This document shows, piece after piece, positions 3,523-15,187 of a DNA stretch of 20,329 bases. Numbering within the stretch: position 1 is the first letter of the stretch; the number at the start of each line of letters is the position of its first letter. The notes under the pieces were generated by a model. It ran no database searches and was not told the DNA's origin. It saw only the letters and a program-made list of their open reading frames with translations. A program made the position numbers and the translations under genes. Origin of the DNA: a virus (Duplodnaviria; Heunggongvirae; Uroviricota; Caudoviricetes); IMG/VR virus record IMGVR_UViG_2537561946_000003, positions 1-20,329 of that record; one strand, 5' to 3'.

Positions 3523-3633
3523 TTATTCATTCTGTTTTTTCATCATCGGCCACAGCAATACCACAATGCCGCAGACCAGAGCGCCATCAGTCAGTACCAA
3601 CATTATCCTGCTGGTGAAATCCATCATCACCAT
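3523..3633 (-). CDS. Hypothetical 36-aa hydrophobic peptide (small membrane protein candidate)
   Basis: ATG at 3633 to TAA at 3525..3523 translates to MVMMDFTSRIMLVLTDGALVCGIVVLLWPMMKKQNE: one predicted TM helix and a basic C-terminus. No strong Shine-Dalgarno. Below the ORF-track length cutoff. Speculative. Confidence 0.2.
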   Translation of the reverse strand: MVMMDFTSRIMLVLTDGALVCGIVVLLWPMMKKQNE

Positions 3634-3766
3634 CACTAAAAGCAGGATCACAACAGCAAGCAGACACAGTTTATAAAACAATGTTCAGAAAACGCATTCA
3701 GCATGCCTAAGGTTCTATTCCTACGAATAGCCAACTTGCAACTTAAAATATTATTTATGCAGCCAA

Positions 3767-4525
3767 TTAAATTCTGGTCCTTACAATATCAACCTGAAGA
3801 TTCTTATCTTGTGCTGATTGATAAATGACAAACCTTTTACTACCTGCATTGAAAGAAGTAGACAAAACCAGACAATTATCATAACGAGCAAGAACATAAT
3901 ACCAACCATCATTATAATTAATCATTTCATATTCTTTCTTAAACTGCGGTTTGTAATATCCTGTCAGAAATGAAAAAAGCCAGAAATATGCCACAAAAGC
4001 AATCATCACAATCTCAAAAAAATGTTTTTTTATAAATGGCTTATCATAGAAGCATGATACCGATAAAAATCGCCCATAAGATCTTATCGAAATTGTAACC
4101 GCCAGCGCAATCGCTGCTGACAGTAGCAAAAGAGGTACCTGAATCTTCTGTCTCAATATAGAAAACTCAATAATTGCCGGCACAAACAATAATTCCACAG
4201 CAAAATAAAGGCGAAATACATTTAGCTCTTGCATAGAATGTTTTCTTTTCACTGCGAAAAAGAATACAACACCAATACCCCAACCGATAAGAAATATAGC
4301 AATGACGATAACTGCAAAAAATAAACTTCTGGCAACATCATCAACACCTGCACCTACAATCCACCATGGGAAGCCGTAGTAAAAAGAAGTACCCCATCCA
4401 TAGAAATAAGCACTCCCCCATCCAAGGCATCCCATGTAGGCAATAAAAAGTGAAGAACTCCTGAGCAGTGCACCATCCTTCATAACCACCCCAATACAAG
4501 ATGATAACATTGGCTTACAACTCAT
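3767..4525 (-). CDS. Hypothetical polytopic inner-membrane protein (AT-rich moron between Q and the lysis genes)
   Basis: 252-codon ORF, probably starting at ATG 4483 (GGGGTGG Shine-Dalgarno; MKDGALLRSSS...). Several hydrophobic Phe/Tyr/Trp-rich segments (about five predicted TM helices) and a C-terminal soluble region of about 50 aa. Visibly AT-rich compared with flanking phage genes. No family recognised. Confidence 0.6.
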   Translation of the reverse strand: MSCKPMLSSCIGVVMKDGALLRSSSLFIAYMGCLGWGSAYFYGWGTSFYYGFPWWIVGAGVDDVARSLFFAVIVIAIFLIGWGIGVVFFFAVKRKHSMQELNVFRLYFAVELLFVPAIIEFSILRQKIQVPLLLLSAAIALAVTISIRSYGRFLSVSCFYDKPFIKKHFFEIVMIAFVAYFWLFSFLTGYYKPQFKKEYEMINYNDGWYYVLARYDNCLVLSTSFNAGSKRFVIYQSAQDKNLQVDIVRTRI

Positions 4526-10130: not shown

Positions 10131-10373
10131 CTTTGTGATTCCATCAAGCGCATACTTAAAAGCCCTGCTAATTGGACTGATGTCTGATGCCATTCCGAAA
10201 GCACACAAGACCGAAGCAATAAACCGCCAGTCCGTTCTGCTTATCTTTGATTCATGACAGCCAATCATCTTTGCCAGACCGCGCTGTGTAAGCGTTGACA
10301 GGTTGATGAGTAAATCTGTTTCTGCGCGATCAATTTCTCGCTGTGTTGGCTTGCTGTAGCTTGCTTGTGCCAT
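10074..10373 (-). CDS. c1: CII-like lysogeny-establishment transcriptional activator (P22 C1 type)
   Basis: 99 aa. HTH region (TQRGLAKMIGCHESKISR) and C-terminus KKKRPVCKTERSNQIQMEF resembling the lambda CII C-terminus (KKRPAATERSEQIQMEF). Position between cro and O. Confidence 0.85.
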   Translation of the reverse strand: MAQASYSKPTQREIDRAETDLLINLSTLTQRGLAKMIGCHESKISRTDWRFIASVLCAFGMASDISPISRAFKYALDGITKKKRPVCKTERSNQIQMEF

Positions 10374-10440
10374 TTGTTAATTTTCCTATATTGATATTGA
10401 GTTATAGCGGCACACCCAATGGATTTGCCGCTGATGTTTG

Positions 10441-10481
10441 CTCACCCGGTTAGAGGTGAAAGGCCAGAACTGTTAAAGAGC
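10441..10481 (-). promoter_or_regulatory. nutR: nutR (boxA plus boxB hairpin) for N-mediated antitermination of the pR transcript
   Basis: Minus strand reads GCTCTTTAACA (boxA-like), then about 10 nt, then TTCACCTCTAACCGGGTGAG (boxB hairpin, stem CACC/GGTG, loop containing CTAACC). Lies between cro and the cII-like gene. Confidence 0.5.
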
Positions 10482-10488
10482 AATTTGC

Positions 10489-10674
10489 TTATGCCGCTTG
10501 GCGGTAAGCACTTTCTTGATACTTCAGGGCGCCAGCTGTAACGATTTCCAATCGATAGGCGTCTTTCTCTGGGATAACTTCTTTCCACTGAGAGACTGCT
10601 GCATCGCTAATGCCTAGTGCTTTAGCAACAGCACGCTGGGTTCCGAAGTGGTCAATAACATCTTTTTTGTACAT
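10489..10674 (-). CDS. cro: Cro repressor (P22 type)
   Basis: 61 aa, MYKKDVIDHFGTQRAVAKALGISDAAVSQWKEVIPEKDAYRLEIVTAGALKYQESAYRQAA, essentially identical to P22 Cro as recalled. Confidence 0.9.
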   Translation of the reverse strand: MYKKDVIDHFGTQRAVAKALGISDAAVSQWKEVIPEKDAYRLEIVTAGALKYQESAYRQAA

Positions 10675-10688
10675 AGACTCGCTCCGAA

Positions 10689-10754
10689 ATTAAAGAACAC
10701 TTAAATTATCCACCAAAGGAATCTTAAGTCAAGTTTATTTAAGATGTCTTAACT
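10689..10754. promoter_or_regulatory. OR: Right operator OR1-OR2-OR3 with divergent PR and PRM
   Basis: Three 18-bp sites fitting the P22-type pattern nnTnAAGnnnnCTTnAnn: ATTAAAGAACACTTAAAT (10689..10706), ACCAAAGGAATCTTAAGT (10712..10729), ATTTAAGATGTCTTAACT (10737..10754), between the divergent cro and c2 starts. Confidence 0.7.
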
Positions 10755-11405
10755 ATGAATACACAACTGATGGGTGAGCGTATTCGCGCTCGCAGAAAAG
10801 AACTCAAGATTAGGCAGGCTGCCCTTGGCAAGATGGTTGGCGTGTCTAATGTTGCTATTTCCCAATGGGAGCGATCTGAAACTGAGCCCAATGGCGAAAA
10901 CCTATTGGCCTTAGCCAAGGCTTTGCAGTGCTCCCCTGATTACCTGTTGAAAGGAGAGGATAGTCTTTCAAACATTGCCTATCACAGCAGGCATGATCCA
11001 AGAGGTTCGTATCCTCTAATTAGTTGGGTAAGCGCAGGATGTTGGATGGAAGCTGTAGAGCCATATCATAGGCGTGCAATAGATAACTGGTACGACACAA
11101 CGGTAGATTGTTCTGAAGACTCTTTTTGGCTCGACGTTAAAGGCGATTCAATGACTGCCCCGGCAGGACTGAGTATTCCTGAGGGGATGATTATTCTCGT
11201 CGACCCAGAAGTCGAACCACGTAATGGAAAGTTGGTAGTCGCCAAACTTGAAGGAGAAAACGAGGCGACATTCAAAAAGTTAGTTATTGATGCCGGTAGA
11301 AAATTCCTGAAACCACTCAATCCACAATACCCAATGATTGAAATCAATGGGAACTGTAAAATCATTGGCGTTGTCGTTGATGCCAAGCTAGCAAACCTTC
11401 CTTAA
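10755..11405 (+). CDS. c2: C2 repressor (P22-type CI; N-terminal HTH plus C-terminal S24 LexA-like autocleavage domain)
   Basis: 216 aa, MNTQLMGERIRARRKELKIRQAALGKMVGVSNVAISQWERSETEPNGENLLALAKALQCSPDYLLKGE..., near-identical to P22 C2 as recalled. C-terminal domain with GDSM (Ser) and K (FKKL) of the S24 catalytic dyad. Confidence 0.95.
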   Translation: MNTQLMGERIRARRKELKIRQAALGKMVGVSNVAISQWERSETEPNGENLLALAKALQCSPDYLLKGEDSLSNIAYHSRHDPRGSYPLISWVSAGCWMEAVEPYHRRAIDNWYDTTVDCSEDSFWLDVKGDSMTAPAGLSIPEGMIILVDPEVEPRNGKLVVAKLEGENEATFKKLVIDAGRKFLKPLNPQYPMIEINGNCKIIGVVVDAKLANLP

Positions 11406-11427
11406 GGGGCTTTCGCCCCTTTTTTAT
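11404..11427 (+). terminator. Intrinsic terminator downstream of c2
   Basis: aggggc-tttc-gcccct followed by tttttt directly after the c2 stop codon. Confidence 0.6.
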
Positions 11428-11469
11428 TTCCCGTTAAAAATCAAAGACAAACTAAATTCACGCCCACAA

Positions 11470-11523
11470 AATTAAGTTTTCTTCAAAAATGCACTTGACC
11501 AACAAATTAAGAAGTCTTAAATT
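11470..11523. promoter_or_regulatory. OL: Left operator OL with promoter pL (reads rightward into N)
   Basis: Operator-pattern sites AATTAAGTTTTCTTCAAA (11470..11487) and AATTAAGAAGTCTTAAAT (11505..11522). TTGACC at 11495..11500, 17-bp spacer, TAAATT at 11518..11523. Confidence 0.6.
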
Positions 11524-11568
11524 TAAGCCATCAGCAGGAGGCTGGAAGCCAAACGGAACAGATTGGCA

Positions 11569-11609
11569 GGCTCTTTAACATCGACGAACTCTCAACCTAA
11601 CCGTTGAGA
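11569..11609 (+). promoter_or_regulatory. nutL: nutL (boxA plus boxB hairpin)
   Basis: GGCTCTTTAACA (boxA-like) followed by TCTCAACCTAACCGTTGAGA (perfect 7-bp stem TCTCAAC/GTTGAGA, loop CTAACC), upstream of N. Confidence 0.55.
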
Positions 11610-11719
11610 CCAGAACTTGAGTGGTTTTGGGGATGGCGCGAATTGCAGTTGCAAGACAGCGATCGAGAAGATAAGCACCTCGACGCGTCATGCGCCAAAA
11701 CCACTTAAAGGAGACCATC

Positions 11720-12025
11720 ATGGTAACCATTGTCTGGAAAGAATCCAAAGGTACGGCAAAAAGCCGCTACAAAGCTCGCAGAGCAGAACTTATTGCCGAG
11801 CGACGCAGTAATGAAGCACTGGCGCGAAAAATTGCGCTAAAGCTCTCTGGTTGCGTCAGGGCAGACAAAGCAACATCACTAGGAAGCCTTTGCTGCAAGA
11901 AGAAAGAAGAAGTCGTTCGAAAAAATAGAAGTATTTATTACAAGGATTCAAACCCATTAGGAAACAAAATACATGCAGTCCAAAAAATAAAATTGTACAG
12001 TAAACTACCGTACGGTGCTTATTGA
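11720..12025 (+). CDS. N: Antiterminator N (phage 21 type, arginine-rich motif)
   Basis: ATG at 11720 with AAGGAG Shine-Dalgarno gives MVTIVWKESKGTAKSRYKARRAELIAERRSNEALARKIALKLSG..., matching the phage 21 N arginine-rich N-terminus as recalled. The ORF-track frame begins at 11690 without an RBS. Confidence 0.8.
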   Translation: MVTIVWKESKGTAKSRYKARRAELIAERRSNEALARKIALKLSGCVRADKATSLGSLCCKKKEEVVRKNRSIYYKDSNPLGNKIHAVQKIKLYSKLPYGAY

Positions 12026-12027
12026 GT

Positions 12028-12366
12028 ATGCTTATGGTGAAAAAGACTATTTATGTTAATCCTGACCGTGGACAAAACAGAAAAGTATCTGATAGAGGTC
12101 TTACATCTCGAGACAGGAGGAGAATAGCGAGATGGGAAAAGAGGATAGCATATGCATTAAAAAACGGTGTAACACCTGGATTTAATGCTATAGATGACGG
12201 TCCTGAATATAAGATTAATGAAGACCCAATGGATAAAGTTGACAAAGCATTAGCAACACCATTTCCTCGCGATGTCGAAAAAATTGAAGATGAAAAATAT
12301 GAGGATGTAATGCACAGAGTTGTTAATCACGCTCACCAACGAAATCCAAATAAAAAATGGTCATAG
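12028..12366 (+). CDS. Hypothetical basic protein, about 112 aa (early-left operon accessory gene)
   Basis: ORF-track frame 12022..12366 (TTG at 12022). ATG at 12028 or 12034 gives MLMVKKTIYVNPDRGQNRKVSDRGLTSRDRRRIARWEKRIAYALKNG.... Lys/Arg-rich, AT-rich codon usage. Followed directly by an intrinsic terminator. No family recognised. Confidence 0.45.
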   Translation: MLMVKKTIYVNPDRGQNRKVSDRGLTSRDRRRIARWEKRIAYALKNGVTPGFNAIDDGPEYKINEDPMDKVDKALATPFPRDVEKIEDEKYEDVMHRVVNHAHQRNPNKKWS

Positions 12367-12387
12367 CCCACTTCGGTGGGTTTTTTA
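12366..12387 (+). terminator. Intrinsic terminator (tL-like)
   Basis: cccac-ttcg-gtggg stem-loop (12367..12380) followed by tttttt (12381..12386). Confidence 0.6.
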
Positions 12388-12529
12388 TTGTCTGAACTAA
12401 CCGAATTTATTACAGCAAGCCACGCAGTGAAATGGGTGTGAGTTGTGTTGGTCGCCAGAAAATGAAATTAGGCAGCAAACCACTTATTTGAGAGGAATTA
12501 ATATGTCATAAATCCGCTTAACTACGAGA

Positions 12530-13126
12530 ATGAAAGAGAAAATCGCTCGTAACGCTTTAATTAAATCTGGGGTTTTCACTGAGCTTGAAGAAGTAACAAA
12601 GTTAAAGAACCAGCTTGCACTTGACGCCAGAGTTATTGCGTTTGGCGGTAAAAAGAAAACTGAGGAAGTGGATCAGTTATCATCCAAGTTAATGGCTATA
12701 AGCGAAGAACTTGAAAAGCTGGGATGTTCATTTTACTCATGCGATGCCCGTTCAACTTCAATTTATCTGACTGTATCTGGCAGAAGGGTTGGCTGGTATT
12801 CATATGGGAAAGACGGCAACGGCGAAGATATATTGCTCCCTACTCCGACCAAAGATAAATGCATGTTTAGCGCAGAACACGAAATAACAAAAAGGTTTGA
12901 TGAAATCTGCGCATTGCAACAAAAACTTGAAGCCAAGAAAAAGGATATCGAATCAAATGTATGGGCTGCTTTGAACTCAGTCACAACAGTTAAGCGACTT
13001 ATTGAAGTTTGGCCTGAAAGCAAAGAGTTGCTACCAAAAGAAGCAGATAAAGCAAGTACAGCACTTCCTGCTTTACGGGTAGAAGATTTGAATAAGATGA
13101 TTGGACTTCCTTCCGAGGCCGCATAA
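12530..13126 (+). CDS. Hypothetical soluble protein, 198 aa (early-left operon accessory gene)
   Basis: ATG at 12530, MKEKIARNALIKSGVFTELEEVTKLKNQLALDARVIAFGGKKK.... Charged, probably partly coiled-coil. No hydrophobic segments. No family recognised. Confidence 0.5.
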   Translation: MKEKIARNALIKSGVFTELEEVTKLKNQLALDARVIAFGGKKKTEEVDQLSSKLMAISEELEKLGCSFYSCDARSTSIYLTVSGRRVGWYSYGKDGNGEDILLPTPTKDKCMFSAEHEITKRFDEICALQQKLEAKKKDIESNVWAALNSVTTVKRLIEVWPESKELLPKEADKASTALPALRVEDLNKMIGLPSEAA

Positions 13127-13260
13127 TCGTCCTTTATTTTTGGCATAAACAACAGAATAAAAACTGCACTGTGTATTCATTCCAACGAGTGAATACACGG
13201 AGCAATGTCGCTCGCAACTAAACAGGAGCCGACTTGTTCTGATTATTGGAAATCTTCTTT

Positions 13261-13287
13261 GCCCTCCAGCGTGAGGGCGATTTTTTA
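13261..13287 (+). terminator. Intrinsic terminator upstream of ea10
   Basis: gccctc-cagcgt-gagggc stem-loop followed by gattttttat. Confidence 0.55.
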
Positions 13288-13306
13288 TCTGTGAGGATAT
13301 GAACAG

Positions 13307-13675
13307 ATGTCAAACATCAAAAAATACATCATTGATTACGACTGGAAAGCATCAATAGAAATTGAAATCGACCATGACGTAATGACAGAGGAAAAACTTC
13401 ACCAGATTAATAATTTCTGGTCAGACTCTGAATACCGACTCAATAAACACGGCTCTGTATTAAATACTGTATTAATCATGCTGGCGCAACATGCTCTGCT
13501 TATAGCAATTTCAAGCGACTTAAATGCATATGGTGTTGTGTGTGAGTTCGACTGGAATGATGGAAATGGTCAGGAAGGATGGCCTCCAATGGATGGTAGC
13601 GAAGGAATAAGAATTACCGATATCGATACATCAGGAATATTTGATTCAGATGATATGACTATCAAAGCCGCCTGA
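13307..13675 (+). CDS. ea10: Ea10 protein (lambda early-left, acidic 122-aa protein)
   Basis: 122 aa, strongly acidic, MSNIKKYIIDYDWKASIEIEIDHDVMTEEKLHQINNFWSDSEY.... Length and the 73-nt spacing to cIII match lambda ea10 as recalled. Confidence 0.7.
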   Translation: MSNIKKYIIDYDWKASIEIEIDHDVMTEEKLHQINNFWSDSEYRLNKHGSVLNTVLIMLAQHALLIAISSDLNAYGVVCEFDWNDGNGQEGWPPMDGSEGIRITDIDTSGIFDSDDMTIKAA

Positions 13676-13747
13676 GCGCTGCGTTACCGCATACCAATAA
13701 CGCTTCACTCGAGGCGTTTTTCGTTATGTATAAATAAGGAGCACACC

Positions 13748-13912
13748 ATGCAGTATGCCATTGCAGGGTGGCCTGTTGCTGGCTGCCCTTCCGAATCTTT
13801 ACTTGAACGAATCACCCGTAAATTACGTGACGGATGGAAACGCCTTATCGACATACTTAATCCGCCAGGAGTCCCAAAAAATGGATCAAACACTTATGGC
13901 TATCCAGACTAA
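13748..13912 (+). CDS. cIII: CIII (FtsH/HflB inhibitor stabilising CII)
   Basis: Hand translation from ATG 13748 (AAGGAG Shine-Dalgarno): [54 protein letters not shown], matching lambda CIII. Below the ORF-track cutoff. Confidence 0.9.
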   Translation: MQYAIAGWPVAGCPSESLLERITRKLRDGWKRLIDILNPPGVPKNGSNTYGYPD

Positions 13913-14024
13913 ATTCACTATCGCCACTTTTATTGGCGATGAAAAGATGTTTCGTGAGGCCGTCGACGCTTATAAAAAATGGATATTAATACTGAAACTG
14001 AGATCAAGCAAAAGCATTCACTAA
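13881..14024 (+). CDS. kil: Kil (host killing / FtsZ inhibition), 47 aa
   Basis: [47 protein letters not shown] matches lambda Kil. Overlaps the cIII 3' end as in lambda. Confidence 0.85.
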
Positions 14025-14099
14025 CCCCCTTTCCTGTTTTCCTAATCAGCCCGGCATTTCGCGGGCGATATTTTCACAGCCATTTTCAGGAGTTCAGCC

Positions 14100-14396
14100 A
14101 TGAACGCTTATTACATTCAGGATCGTCTTGAGGCTCAGAGCTGGGCGCGTCACTACCAGCAGCTCGCCCGTGAAGAGAAAGAGGCAGAACTGGCAGACGA
14201 CATGGAAAAAGGCCTGCCCCAGCACCTGTTTGAATCGCTATGCATCGATCATTTGCAACGCCACGGGGCCAGCAAAAAAGCCATTACCCGTGCGTTTGAT
14301 GACGATGTTGAGTTTCAGGAGCGCATGGCAGAACACATCCGGTACATGGTTGAAACTATTGCCCGCCACCAGGTTGATATTGATTCAGAGGTATAA
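14100..14396 (+). CDS. gam: Gam (RecBCD inhibitor), 98-aa GamS form
   Basis: [60 protein letters not shown]... matches lambda Gam. GGAG Shine-Dalgarno upstream. Confidence 0.95.
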
Positions 14397-14401
14397 AACG
14401 G

Positions 14402-15187
14402 ATGAGTACAGCACTCGCAACGCTGGCAGGGAAGCTGGCTGAACGTGTCGGCATGGATTCTGTCGACCCACAGGAACTGATCACCACTCTTCGCCAGACG
14501 GCATTTAAAGGTGATGCCAGCGATGCGCAGTTCATCGCATTGTTGATCGTTGCCAACCAGTACGGCCTTAATCCGTGGACGAAAGAAATTTACGCCTTTC
14601 CTGATAAGCAGAATGGCATCGTTCCGGTGGTGGGCGTTGATGGCTGGTCCCGCATCATCAATGAAAACCAGCAGTTTGATGGCATGGACTTTGAGCAGGA
14701 CAATGAATCCTGTACATGCCGGATTTACCGCAAGGACCGTAATCATCCGATCTGCGTTACCGAGTGGATGGATGAATGCCGCCGCGAACCATTCAAAACC
14801 CGCGAAGGCAGAGAAATTACGGGGCCGTGGCAGTCGCATCCCAAACGGATGTTACGGCATAAAGCCATGATTCAGTGTGCCCGTCTGGCCTTCGGATTTG
14901 CGGGTATCTATGACAAGGATGAAGCCGAGCGCATTGTCGAAAATACCGCATACACTGCAGAACGTCAGCCAGAACGCGACATCACTCCGGTTAACGATGA
15001 AACCATGCAGGAGATTAACACTCTGCTGATCGCCCTGGATAAAACATGGGATGACGACTTATTGCCGCTCTGTTCCCAGATATTTCGCCGCGACATTCGC
15101 GCATCGTCAGAACTGACACAGGTCGAGGCAGTGAAAGCTCTTGGATTCCTGAAACAGAAAGCCTCTGAACAGAAGGTGGCTGCATGA
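14402..15187 (+). CDS. bet: Bet (Red-beta single-strand annealing protein)
   Basis: 261 aa, [72 protein letters not shown]... matches lambda Bet. Confidence 0.97.

Follow-up and report, generated by a model that had tools for sequence, protein, structure and literature searches.

The interval 12028-13126 of the 20,329-nt stretch of viral DNA analysed here (the window) very probably contains two accessory genes already known from lambdoid phages, nun and an Nmad5-family gene, set within a mosaic early-left operon. The initial annotation had presented these two ORFs (here ORF1 and ORF2) as unrecognised. Both are already known: ORF1 encodes the textbook HK022 Nun protein, while ORF2 belongs clearly to Pfam PF18757 (Nmad5) and phrog_1965 and is already so named in RefSeq. 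The claim of novelty falls, and the terminator-bounded modular layout described with it stands. The features of the region are as follows.

10441..10481, minus strand: nutR, with boxA GCTCTTTAAC (10481-10472) and a phage-21-type boxB TTCACCTCTAACCGGGTGAG (10460-10441) with a CUAACC loop; identical to lambda imm21 nutR
11570..11609, plus strand: nutL, with boxA GCTCTTTAAC (11570-11579) and the phage-21-type boxB TCTCAAC-CTAACC-GTTGAGA (11590-11609); one spacer base differs from lambda imm21 nutL
11720..12025, plus strand: N antiterminator (101 aa), with phage-21 N in codons 1-74 and, in the last 27 codons, a different N-tail allele, which accompanies nun
11908..12027, plus strand: HK022-shared segment 5' of nun, forming the 3' end of the N ORF; HK022 homology begins at 11908
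12028..12366, plus strand: nun, for the HK022-type Nun transcription-arrest and superinfection-exclusion protein (phrog_5632, PDB and HK022 identity)
12365..12388, plus strand: intrinsic terminator closing the nun cassette (hairpin GCCCAC-UUCG-GUGGGU, then a U run; -11.0 kcal/mol); HK022 homology stops at 12383
12396..12491, plus strand: phage-21 N relic, the last 30 codons (NRIYYSKPRSEMGVSCVGRQKMKLGSKPLI, then stop), pushed downstream by the nun cassette; 95.7% identical to the lambda imm21 N 3' end
12503..12511, plus strand: Nmad5 family start, ATG at 12503 with the Shine-Dalgarno sequence GAGAGGA (12490-12496), then TAA at codon 3 (12509-12511), from comparison with relatives
12530..13126, plus strand: Nmad5-family ORF (PF18757), 198 aa from internal Met10; the intact family form has 207 aa (12503-13126)
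13259..13288, plus strand: intrinsic terminator upstream of ea10, from a hairpin-plus-T-run scan, -12.9 kcal/mol
13307..13675, plus strand: ea10 (DUF2528), 99.2% identical to lambda Ea10; PF10800 at 1.1e-46

Organization of the early-left region

The flanks of the interval are those proposed at the outset. N is of the phage 21 type, with 98.4% identity between window positions 10300-11942 and lambda imm21; at the protein level 76 of 96 residues match lambda imm21 N, the divergence being confined to the C-terminus, and mEp235 and Kapi1 have the same N as the window. The right-hand neighbour is the lambda-type ea10, within DNA (13131-13800) that is 98.4% identical to the lambda imm21 DNA 3' of ral; the ea10 module (13289-13688) is missing from mEp235 and HK022. 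The equivalent interval of lambda contains the annotated SieB ORF, orf28 and ral. An Rfam search gave the cIII thermoregulator as its sole match.

Hairpins followed by a T run were found where they had been claimed, at 12365-12382 and 13259-13280, with folding energies of -11.0 kcal/mol (z -2.0) for the one ending nun and -12.9 kcal/mol (z -2.5) for the one before ea10. The latter matches by position the lambda terminator that we take to be tL2a. Further terminator-like sites of this kind lie at 11404-11421 and 13699-13718, and the region 10500-15000 has 13 in all, against 4.6 +/- 2.2 in shuffled sequence. The description of each ORF as bracketed by terminators needs amending on the left, where ORF1 is preceded not by a terminator but by the N stop codon, 2 nt away. 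The modularity itself is borne out by comparison with HK022, mEp235, Kapi1, PDP110P1, PA28 and lambda imm21, with breakpoints at or beside terminators and gene edges.

ORF1 is nun of phage HK022

ORF1 was confirmed as first described (12028-12366, plus strand, 112 aa from ATG 12028) and is basic (pI 9.65); alternative starts at ATG 12034 and GTG 12037 exist, the latter giving 109 aa. Judged by its sequence, ORF1 is HK022 Nun, with the boxB-binding and polymerase-jamming segments unchanged. It matches phrog_5632 over its full length (4.5e-71), and 111 of its 112 residues are those of HK022 Nun, the sole change (S14R) falling outside both functional segments. The match to chain N of the cryo-EM entry PDB 6ALG is 108/109 (2.5e-71). 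All 26 residues of the boxB-binding arginine-rich motif in the peptide 1HJI chain B are present, and the C-terminal sequence YEDVMHRVVNHAHQRNPNKKWS is the same as in 6ALG chain N. This C-terminal segment makes the contacts with RNA polymerase and nucleic acid, through H93, R94, N97, H98, H100, R102, K106, K107 and W108 (PMC5386594). The copy of Nun in phage PDP110P1 is 100% identical, and the small Nun family as a whole conserves both the arginine-rich motif and the C-terminal HAHQR.P.KKW.

The homology of ORF1 is accordingly to an early-left protein of established function, a finding that the initial annotation had itself set against its reading; for ORF2 homology supplies a family name without an established function, and there the same argument carries only part of the way. 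The suggestion that the slot carries superinfection-exclusion cargo was right for ORF1. Also upheld is the statement that neither protein resembles the annotated SieB ORF or Ral of lambda: BLASTP against the annotated SieB ORF, orf28 and Ral of lambda gave nothing below E = 0.7, and a Pfam search of the two proteins gave no match to Ral or SieB at E <= 1. Neither protein matched any PADLOC-DB 2.0 family at E <= 1, the check in defence databases that had been proposed; that database contains no Nun model. NCBIfam, which has no model for either protein, gave no meaningful match.

Insertion of the nun cassette in N

The nun cassette of ~470 bp comprises an alternative N tail, nun and the terminator. 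Its homology to HK022 runs from 11908 to 12383 (96.4% over 476 bp), and the 120 nt upstream of nun differ from HK022 at 3 positions (97.5% identical). A 10-bp repeat, ATTTATTACA, occurs at 11933-11942 and again at 12405-12414, and in a prophage that lacks nun the Nmad5 gene begins 11 nt after N. On this sequence evidence the cassette is an insertion within a phage-21-type N gene, whose original tail is the relic now found downstream.

The nun unit (11908-12388) invites comparison with the morons of lambdoid phages. The moron concept, of units made of promoter, gene and terminator, is reportedly that of Juhala et al. in 2000. Like morons, the nun unit consists of a segment that by homology bears a promoter, one gene and a terminator, and it occurs in differing genomic backgrounds. 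Unlike morons, which lie between genes, it is embedded in the N frame and gives N a new C-terminal tail.

Besides Nun, phage HK022 (GenBank X16093, AF069308) has in common with the window the 120 nt preceding the gene and the terminator that follows it. HK022 keeps only a 38-codon N remnant, whereas in the window, mEp235 and Kapi1 nun stands beside an intact phage-21-type N and nut sites. HK022 relies on put RNA in place of N. It also lacks the Nmad5 gene and has IS903 further downstream. HK022 looks like a derivative that retained the N tail only. The order cI - N - nun - Nmad5 of the window recurs, at 97-98% DNA identity, in mEp235 (gp39-gp37), Kapi1 (genes 020-018) and a prophage of E. coli Res13-Lact-PEA14-20. 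In all three of these the Nmad5 gene is intact, annotated as 207 aa in mEp235 and Res13 and as 227 aa in Kapi1; mEp235 and Kapi1, unlike the window, are without ea10.

Predicted expression and targets of Nun

Because this protein is nearly identical to HK022 Nun, constitutive expression of nun in the lysogen is expected, with the transcript ending at the 12365-12388 hairpin. The constitutive prophage promoters P_Nun and P_Nun' would lie in the 120 nt 5' of nun, which here are the 3' end of the N gene. This placement follows the mapping of P_Nun reportedly made by King, Madsen and Weisberg in 2000. No strong sigma-70 consensus promoter was found in 11880-12040; the best result of a relaxed scan had 7 of 12 matches, and the best -10 candidate 5' of nun in the consensus scan was TAAAAT at 11988-11993.

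For the mechanism and target range of Nun we draw on PMC5386594 and PMC4124055. The arginine-rich motif would bind the lambda-type boxB hairpin in the nascent nut RNA of a superinfecting phage, competing with lambda N, and the C-terminal tail (H98, K106, K107 and W108) would wedge into RNA polymerase and block translocation, so that phages with lambda nut sites would be excluded. Lambda and lambda imm434, which have common NUT sites, are excluded by Nun (PMC4124055). The resident phage has nut sites of the phage 21 type, and no lambda-type boxB was found anywhere in the 20-kb window; with its phage-21 N and boxB it should therefore be spared, going by the published target range of Nun. A match to lambda boxB with three mismatches at 549-563 was discarded, being no better than chance and forming no hairpin.

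Among 5,426 complete E. coli genomes, 221 carry Nun under the label 'hypothetical protein' or 'transcriptional regulator', as does phage Kapi1; in Kapi1 and RefSeq the label is 'hypothetical protein'. With such labels in the databases it is readily mistaken for a novel protein.

ORF2 is an Nmad5-family gene with an early stop codon

ORF2 was confirmed as a 198-aa frame (12530-13126, plus strand, pI 6.65) without hydrophobic character, but its start is not that of its family. The match to PF18757 scores 5e-68 and 229.6 bits (gathering cutoff 27), aligning residues 1-194 to profile positions 7-206 of 206, and that to phrog_1965 scores 3.3e-78. In ~210 complete E. coli genomes RefSeq names the homologue 'Nmad5 family protein'. 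Of the 2761 cluster representatives in the Pfam family, nearly all are single-domain proteins of ~200 aa. An AF2 model of ORF2 reached a pLDDT of 85.5. Foldseek against viral structures found nothing beyond other Nmad5 proteins, and PDB sequence searches with ORF2, both single-sequence and profile, returned coiled-coil noise only; ORF2 resembles no solved structure, and no enzyme match was found by fold or by sequence. A literature search by ORF2 accession or family id found nothing. The invariant Nmad5 residues are mostly hydrophobic or structural, and include no clusters of Cys, His or Asp such as form catalytic or metal-binding sites.

ORF2 occupies the slot of orf28 and ral in lambda imm21. 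It lies where lambda has orf28 and Ral, after the N stop codon and ahead of the conserved DNA that leads to tL2a and ea10; no sequence similarity to them was found.

Relatives of ORF2 begin 9 codons upstream of its start, and all 32 of those aligned have the extra N-terminus with its conserved RLT motif. The complete N-terminus (M-x-x-RLT..., with an invariant Leu) is absent from the ORF2 reading, and codon 3 of the Nmad5 frame, TCA in mEp235 and Kapi1, is TAA in the window. What is read as a 198-aa ORF is thus a shortened version of a gene that may be disabled. Of the 207 complete E. coli genomes carrying the corresponding 61-mer around the Nmad5 start, not one matches the window exactly, the best agreeing at 60 of 61 positions. 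Reinitiation at ATG 12530 would give at most an Nmad5 product without the 9 conserved N-terminal residues.

No promoter-like site was found between 12383 and 12530, and the gene lies behind the nun terminator; we therefore expect Nmad5 to be expressed only in early lytic growth, when it would be transcribed from PL under N antitermination.

Homologues of ORF2 with experimental data are those of Dhillonvirus only. PhiSMS22 and PhiSMA8 (PMC11846954), with a homologue in phage Oekolampad (Bas18, gene 0007), encode proteins of the same Pfam family. Those of Dhillonvirus are longer (254 aa or more), have another middle region and are encoded on the strand opposite to the surrounding structural genes of a virulent phage. 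Over ORF2 residues 94-194 the C-terminal halves are 34% identical, and the shared sequence takes in the VK[RK]L..WPE motif as well as the terminal I/C-G-[LI]-P. The gene is dispensable there and toxic to clone; K-to-E changes (K216E/K296E) give escape from the Tmn defence system, which deletion does not (PMC11846954). The lysine of Tmn escape maps into the Nmad5 signature motif.

Alternative readings of the two genes

A possible alternative for ORF2 is that the gene is dead here, the TAA having abolished functional Nmad5 and left the 198-aa ORF as a leftover frame. We put this at a little under an even chance. The TCA of relatives at codon 3 speaks for it, as do the 9 missing residues, which contain the invariant Leu and the conserved RLT motif and are predicted to be ordered in a full-length model (pLDDT ~81, with a beta-bridge at residue 5); moreover only a weak GAG precedes ATG 12530, the allele is missing from the 207 complete E. 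coli genomes carrying the 61-mer, and other phages can dispense with the gene. Yet the rest of the frame is uninterrupted, with 94-98% identity to alleles that look functional, ATG 12530 lies 18 nt past the stop, within the reinitiation distance of bacterial ribosomes, and the TAA could be a sequencing error. Far less credible, indeed almost certainly wrong, is the original view, in which neither ORF can be assigned and both are novel cargo serving exclusion or anti-restriction in some new way. Accessory genes are known to gather in this slot (the annotated SieB ORF, orf28 and ral in lambda), the PGAP label for nun in E. coli genomes is 'hypothetical protein', and neither protein has an NCBIfam or PADLOC model, all of which favour that view; but ORF1 is 99% identical to HK022 Nun, of solved structure and mechanism, an identity that already refutes the ORF1 part, and ORF2 falls, at 5e-68, in a curated Pfam family whose name it already bears in RefSeq.

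For the role of Nmad5, our best guess, offered tentatively, is a dispensable, non-enzymatic helical adaptor whose invariant C-terminal VTTVK[RK]L..WPE..E...N..IGLP acts on partners in DNA metabolism or host immunity, a reading that we hold possible while doubting it. Another reading, which we consider improbable, makes Nmad5 not a nucleotide-modification factor but an early, non-enzymatic protein, encoded in the ral slot, that interacts with host immunity by inhibiting defence sensors such as Tmn or by being detected by them; the private nonsense codon would then reflect selection to silence a protein that sensors detect. The position in the slot, the dispensability, the location of the Tmn-escape residue in the signature motif and the want of catalytic-looking residues fit this host-immunity reading. 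Equally improbable in our estimate is what the family name implies, that Nmad5 helps to modify nucleotides or DNA, as an accessory subunit in a pathway of base modification or dNTP supply; the name rests on a neighbourhood of nucleotide-modification genes. The Yuavirus PAE1 homologue does adjoin a gene for a thymidylate-synthase-like protein, a 5'-deoxynucleotidase and a DNA polymerase, that of the N4-like phage Pylas lies between thymidylate synthase and exonuclease plus primase, and a dUTPase is near a metagenomic homologue. Against this, no modification enzyme is encoded nearby in the window, mEp235, Kapi1 or SPN3UB, the Dhillonvirus gene stands alone on the strand opposite to the surrounding structural genes, and the conserved residues do not look catalytic, with no enzyme match by fold or sequence. 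Such a neighbourhood is seen only in some virulent phages; here the neighbours are N, nun, ea10 and cIII. Still, the thymidylate synthase and replication neighbours in two virulent phage groups fit a role in nucleotide or DNA metabolism at least as well as one in immunity. Less probable again, and very unlikely, is that prophage expression of ORF2, as a moron, defends the lysogen, nun and ORF2 together making up an exclusion cassette of two genes. The two genes adjoin in mEp235, Kapi1, E. coli Res13 and the window, and intrinsic terminators leak; but ORF2 is preceded by a strong terminator and has no promoter-like site, Nmad5 is found without nun and nun without Nmad5 (HK022, PDP110P1 and PA28), the family is common in virulent phages, there is no PADLOC match, and the NMAD domain of the DefensePredictor systems is Nmad2, not Nmad5. 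Those systems were dropped as relatives of Nmad5 on this last ground.

A role in head morphogenesis was also dropped: the Dhillonvirus gene is on the strand opposite to the structural genes, and elsewhere homologues lie in replication or nin regions. It had been considered because the homologue in a marine phage follows a 669-aa DUF8224 protein and the Dhillonvirus gene is near the capsid gene.

Implications

The practical lessons of this locus concern annotation, Nun being among the best-studied phage exclusion proteins. The nun cassette is also an instance of how an exclusion gene may spread, as a promoter-gene-terminator unit that entered, by recombination, the N gene of a phage with nut sites that Nun should not recognise. 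Nmad5, for its part, belongs to a family that numbers thousands of members, from temperate as well as virulent phages, and has an experimental link only to Tmn escape.

Layout of the early-left region

The window carries a lambdoid immunity and early-left region in the orientation opposite to the lambda map. Two ORFs, ORF1 (112 aa) and ORF2 (198 aa), lie between N and ea10, where lambda has the annotated SieB ORF, orf28 and ral; we re-found both ORFs and their hairpins, and the initial annotation had placed and described them correctly.

Features of the immunity and early-left region (window coordinates, strand)
10489-10674, minus: cro
10755-11405, plus: cI
11495-11523, plus: promoter-like site, probably PL
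11570-11609, plus: nutL
11720-12025, plus: N
12028-12366, plus: ORF1
12365-12382, then a T run, plus: terminator after ORF1
12530-13126, plus: ORF2
13259-13280, then a T run, plus: terminator after ORF2
13307-13675, plus: ea10
13699-13718, plus: terminator after ea10
from 13748, plus: cIII, kil, gam, bet

Terminator-like sites are enriched, with 13 in 10500-15000 against 4.6 ± 2.2 in shuffles, and the four plus-strand hairpins have folding energies of -11 to -13 kcal/mol. A strong hairpin with a T run at 11404-11421 (-12.1 kcal/mol, z = -3.0) directly follows the stop codon of cI and precedes PL. The modular, terminator-bounded layout proposed earlier finds support in breakpoints across six related genomes (HK022, mEp235, Kapi1, PDP110P1, PA28 and lambda imm21). 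The ea10 gene is 99.2% identical to lambda Ea10; its module (13289-13688) is an exact indel against mEp235 and HK022, with edges just 3' of one terminator and just 5' of the next. The Rfam family Lambda_thermo (the cIII thermoregulator) matches at 13735-13793 (84.8 bits), overlapping the cIII start.

Identity of ORF1

By homology, ORF1 is HK022 Nun. It matches phrog_5632, "Nun-like transcription termination factor", over its full length (4.5e-71), and a search of solved structures aligned its residues 4-112 with all 109 residues of 6ALG chain N (Nun, bound within an E. coli elongation complex), with one difference. The boxB-binding peptide in 1HJI has exactly the sequence of residues 22-47. 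The protein is 100% identical to the PDP110P1 copy and matches the HK022 genome protein at 111 of 112 positions; the sole change, S14R, lies outside both functional segments of Nun. These are an arginine-rich motif, which binds the lambda boxB of nascent nut RNA in competition with lambda N, and a C-terminal segment that inserts into RNA polymerase and prevents translocation (PMC5386594).

In its wider extent, the Nun family numbers only 20 clusters. One clade (61-67% identity), which includes a Citrobacter braakii protein, retains the motif core DRRR.ARW, and its full-length members also keep the C-terminal HAHQ...KKW; a distant homologue (41% identity) occurs in Hafnia phage Pocitis76. Residues 84-112 of ORF1 weakly match (E = 2.5e-4) the C-terminus of phrog_12139, a family of 289 positions and unknown function; a polymerase-jamming tail of the Nun type might occur in further phage proteins. 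Neither NCBIfam nor Pfam has a Nun model. Of 5,426 complete E. coli genomes, 221 were found to carry the gene (for example at 3629-3967 of the RefSeq locus L006), and so does phage Kapi1 as gene 019 (L002 3129-3467); the labels given are hypothetical protein or transcriptional regulator.

A nun cassette inside N

From 10300 to 11942 the window is 98.4% identical to lambda imm21, a segment spanning cro, cI, PL, nutL and N codons 1-74. Its nutR has the imm21 sequence and its nutL differs by one spacer base; both boxB hairpins have a CUAACC loop, and no lambda-type boxB occurs in the whole 20 kb window. Given the published target range of Nun, the resident phage's own transcripts should be spared.

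From 11943 the N frame continues into a different 27-codon tail; nun begins 2 nt later and is followed by its terminator. HK022 has exactly this unit of N tail, nun and terminator (11908-12383, 96.4% identity), and therefore carries a 38-codon N-tail remnant upstream of nun (L003 2381-2506) without an N gene before it. Directly after the nun terminator, 12396-12491 translates in frame as NRIYYSKPRSEMGVSCVGRQKMKLGSKPLI and a stop codon; this segment corresponds to the last 30 codons of phage-21 N, matching the genuine 3' end of that gene at 95.7% identity, and separates the nun terminator from the Nmad5 start of ORF2. A 10-bp repeat, ATTTATTACA (the IYY codons), stands at both edges (11933-11942 and 12405-12414), and in an E. 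coli AVS0969 prophage without nun, Nmad5 starts 11 nt after the N stop. The relic thus points to insertion inside N: these sequences are read most simply as the recombination of a ~470-bp unit (N tail, nun and terminator) into an N gene of phage-21 type, which would have displaced the original N tail downstream. Unlike the window, HK022 lacks both the Nmad5 and ea10 modules. The HK022 IS903 (L003 2868-4075) shows a 9-bp flanking overlap (window 13177-13185), consistent with target duplication.

King, Madsen and Weisberg reportedly found in 2000 that the promoters P_Nun and P_Nun' drive nun transcription in the repressed HK022 prophage; they are said to lie just 5' of the nun coding sequence, with transcripts ending just after nun. 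The 120 nt upstream of nun differ from HK022 at only 3 positions, and by homology these promoters would lie at 11908-12027, within the N ORF; consensus promoter scans of that interval gave at best 7 of 12 matches and did not place them.

Nmad5 family membership and early stop codon of ORF2

ORF2 matches Pfam PF18757 (Nmad5) at 5e-68 (229.6 bits, cutoff 27; profile positions 7-206 of 206) and phrog_1965, of unknown function, at 3.3e-78; RefSeq names its homologue "Nmad5 family putative nucleotide modification protein". This allele is present in 211 of the 5,426 complete E. coli genomes. The large Nmad5 family has 2761 representatives at E <= 0.001; almost every one of the top 150 consists of a single domain and is ~200 aa long.

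All relatives begin about 9 residues earlier than ORF2, with M-S-S-I-R-L-T-T-R in close ones, an invariant Leu and a conserved RLT motif. The family start in the window is ATG 12503, with a good Shine-Dalgarno upstream; codon 3 (within 12503-12511) is TAA, whereas mEp235 and Kapi1 have TCA. Among 207 complete E. coli genomes with the 61-mer around this start, none matches the window exactly (best, 60/61). There is no alternative start between TAA and ATG 12530, and at best reinitiation there, 18 nt downstream, would yield Nmad5 minus its first 9 residues; a model of the full-length protein shows these residues ordered, with a beta-bridge.

In lambda imm21, orf28 and ral take up exactly the interval that Nmad5 occupies here, which runs from the N stop codon to conserved DNA starting 5 nt after the Nmad5 stop; PDP110P1 and PA28 have other DNA in this slot. 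Because no promoter-like site was found upstream of Nmad5, we infer early lytic expression from PL, which would here depend on N antitermination owing to the inserted nun terminator.

Possible roles of Nmad5

The Nmad5 model (pLDDT 85.5, pTM 0.72) combines three helices at its N-terminus with a beta-hairpin, a helix of 30 residues and, at the C-terminus, a small helical unit that is highly conserved. It resembles solved structures only in generic helices, and among viral models matches only other Nmad5 proteins. The invariant residues (I, A, K, G, G, V, V, T, K, L, W, P, E, E, N, I, G, L, P) do not look like an active site. Genomic contexts vary: Nmad5 has thymidylate synthase and replication genes as neighbours in a Yuavirus and an N4-like phage, is found in nin-type regions of SPN3UB and a metagenomic phage, and stands alone on the opposite strand among structural genes in Dhillonvirus.

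In the only experimental paper on Nmad5, a K-to-E change in the Dhillonvirus protein gave escape from the Tmn defence system and deletion did not, and the gene was toxic to clone (PMC11846954). Assuming that PhiSMA8 numbering equals that of Oekolampad, K215 and K216 of the 254-aa Oekolampad homologue align with ORF2 K155 and R156, inside the VTTVK[RK]L motif. Direct action in base modification is the less likely role in lambdoid phages, which have no modification genes near Nmad5. Our tentative guess is a dispensable adaptor that would act, by way of protein contacts, on DNA metabolism or host immunity.

The finding is an ordinary one: the ORFs initially called unrecognised are HK022 Nun and a member of a named, widely annotated family, and the suggested exclusion function holds for one of them, ORF1, as Nun. 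What remains of interest is the role of Nmad5 and the anatomy of the nun insertion.
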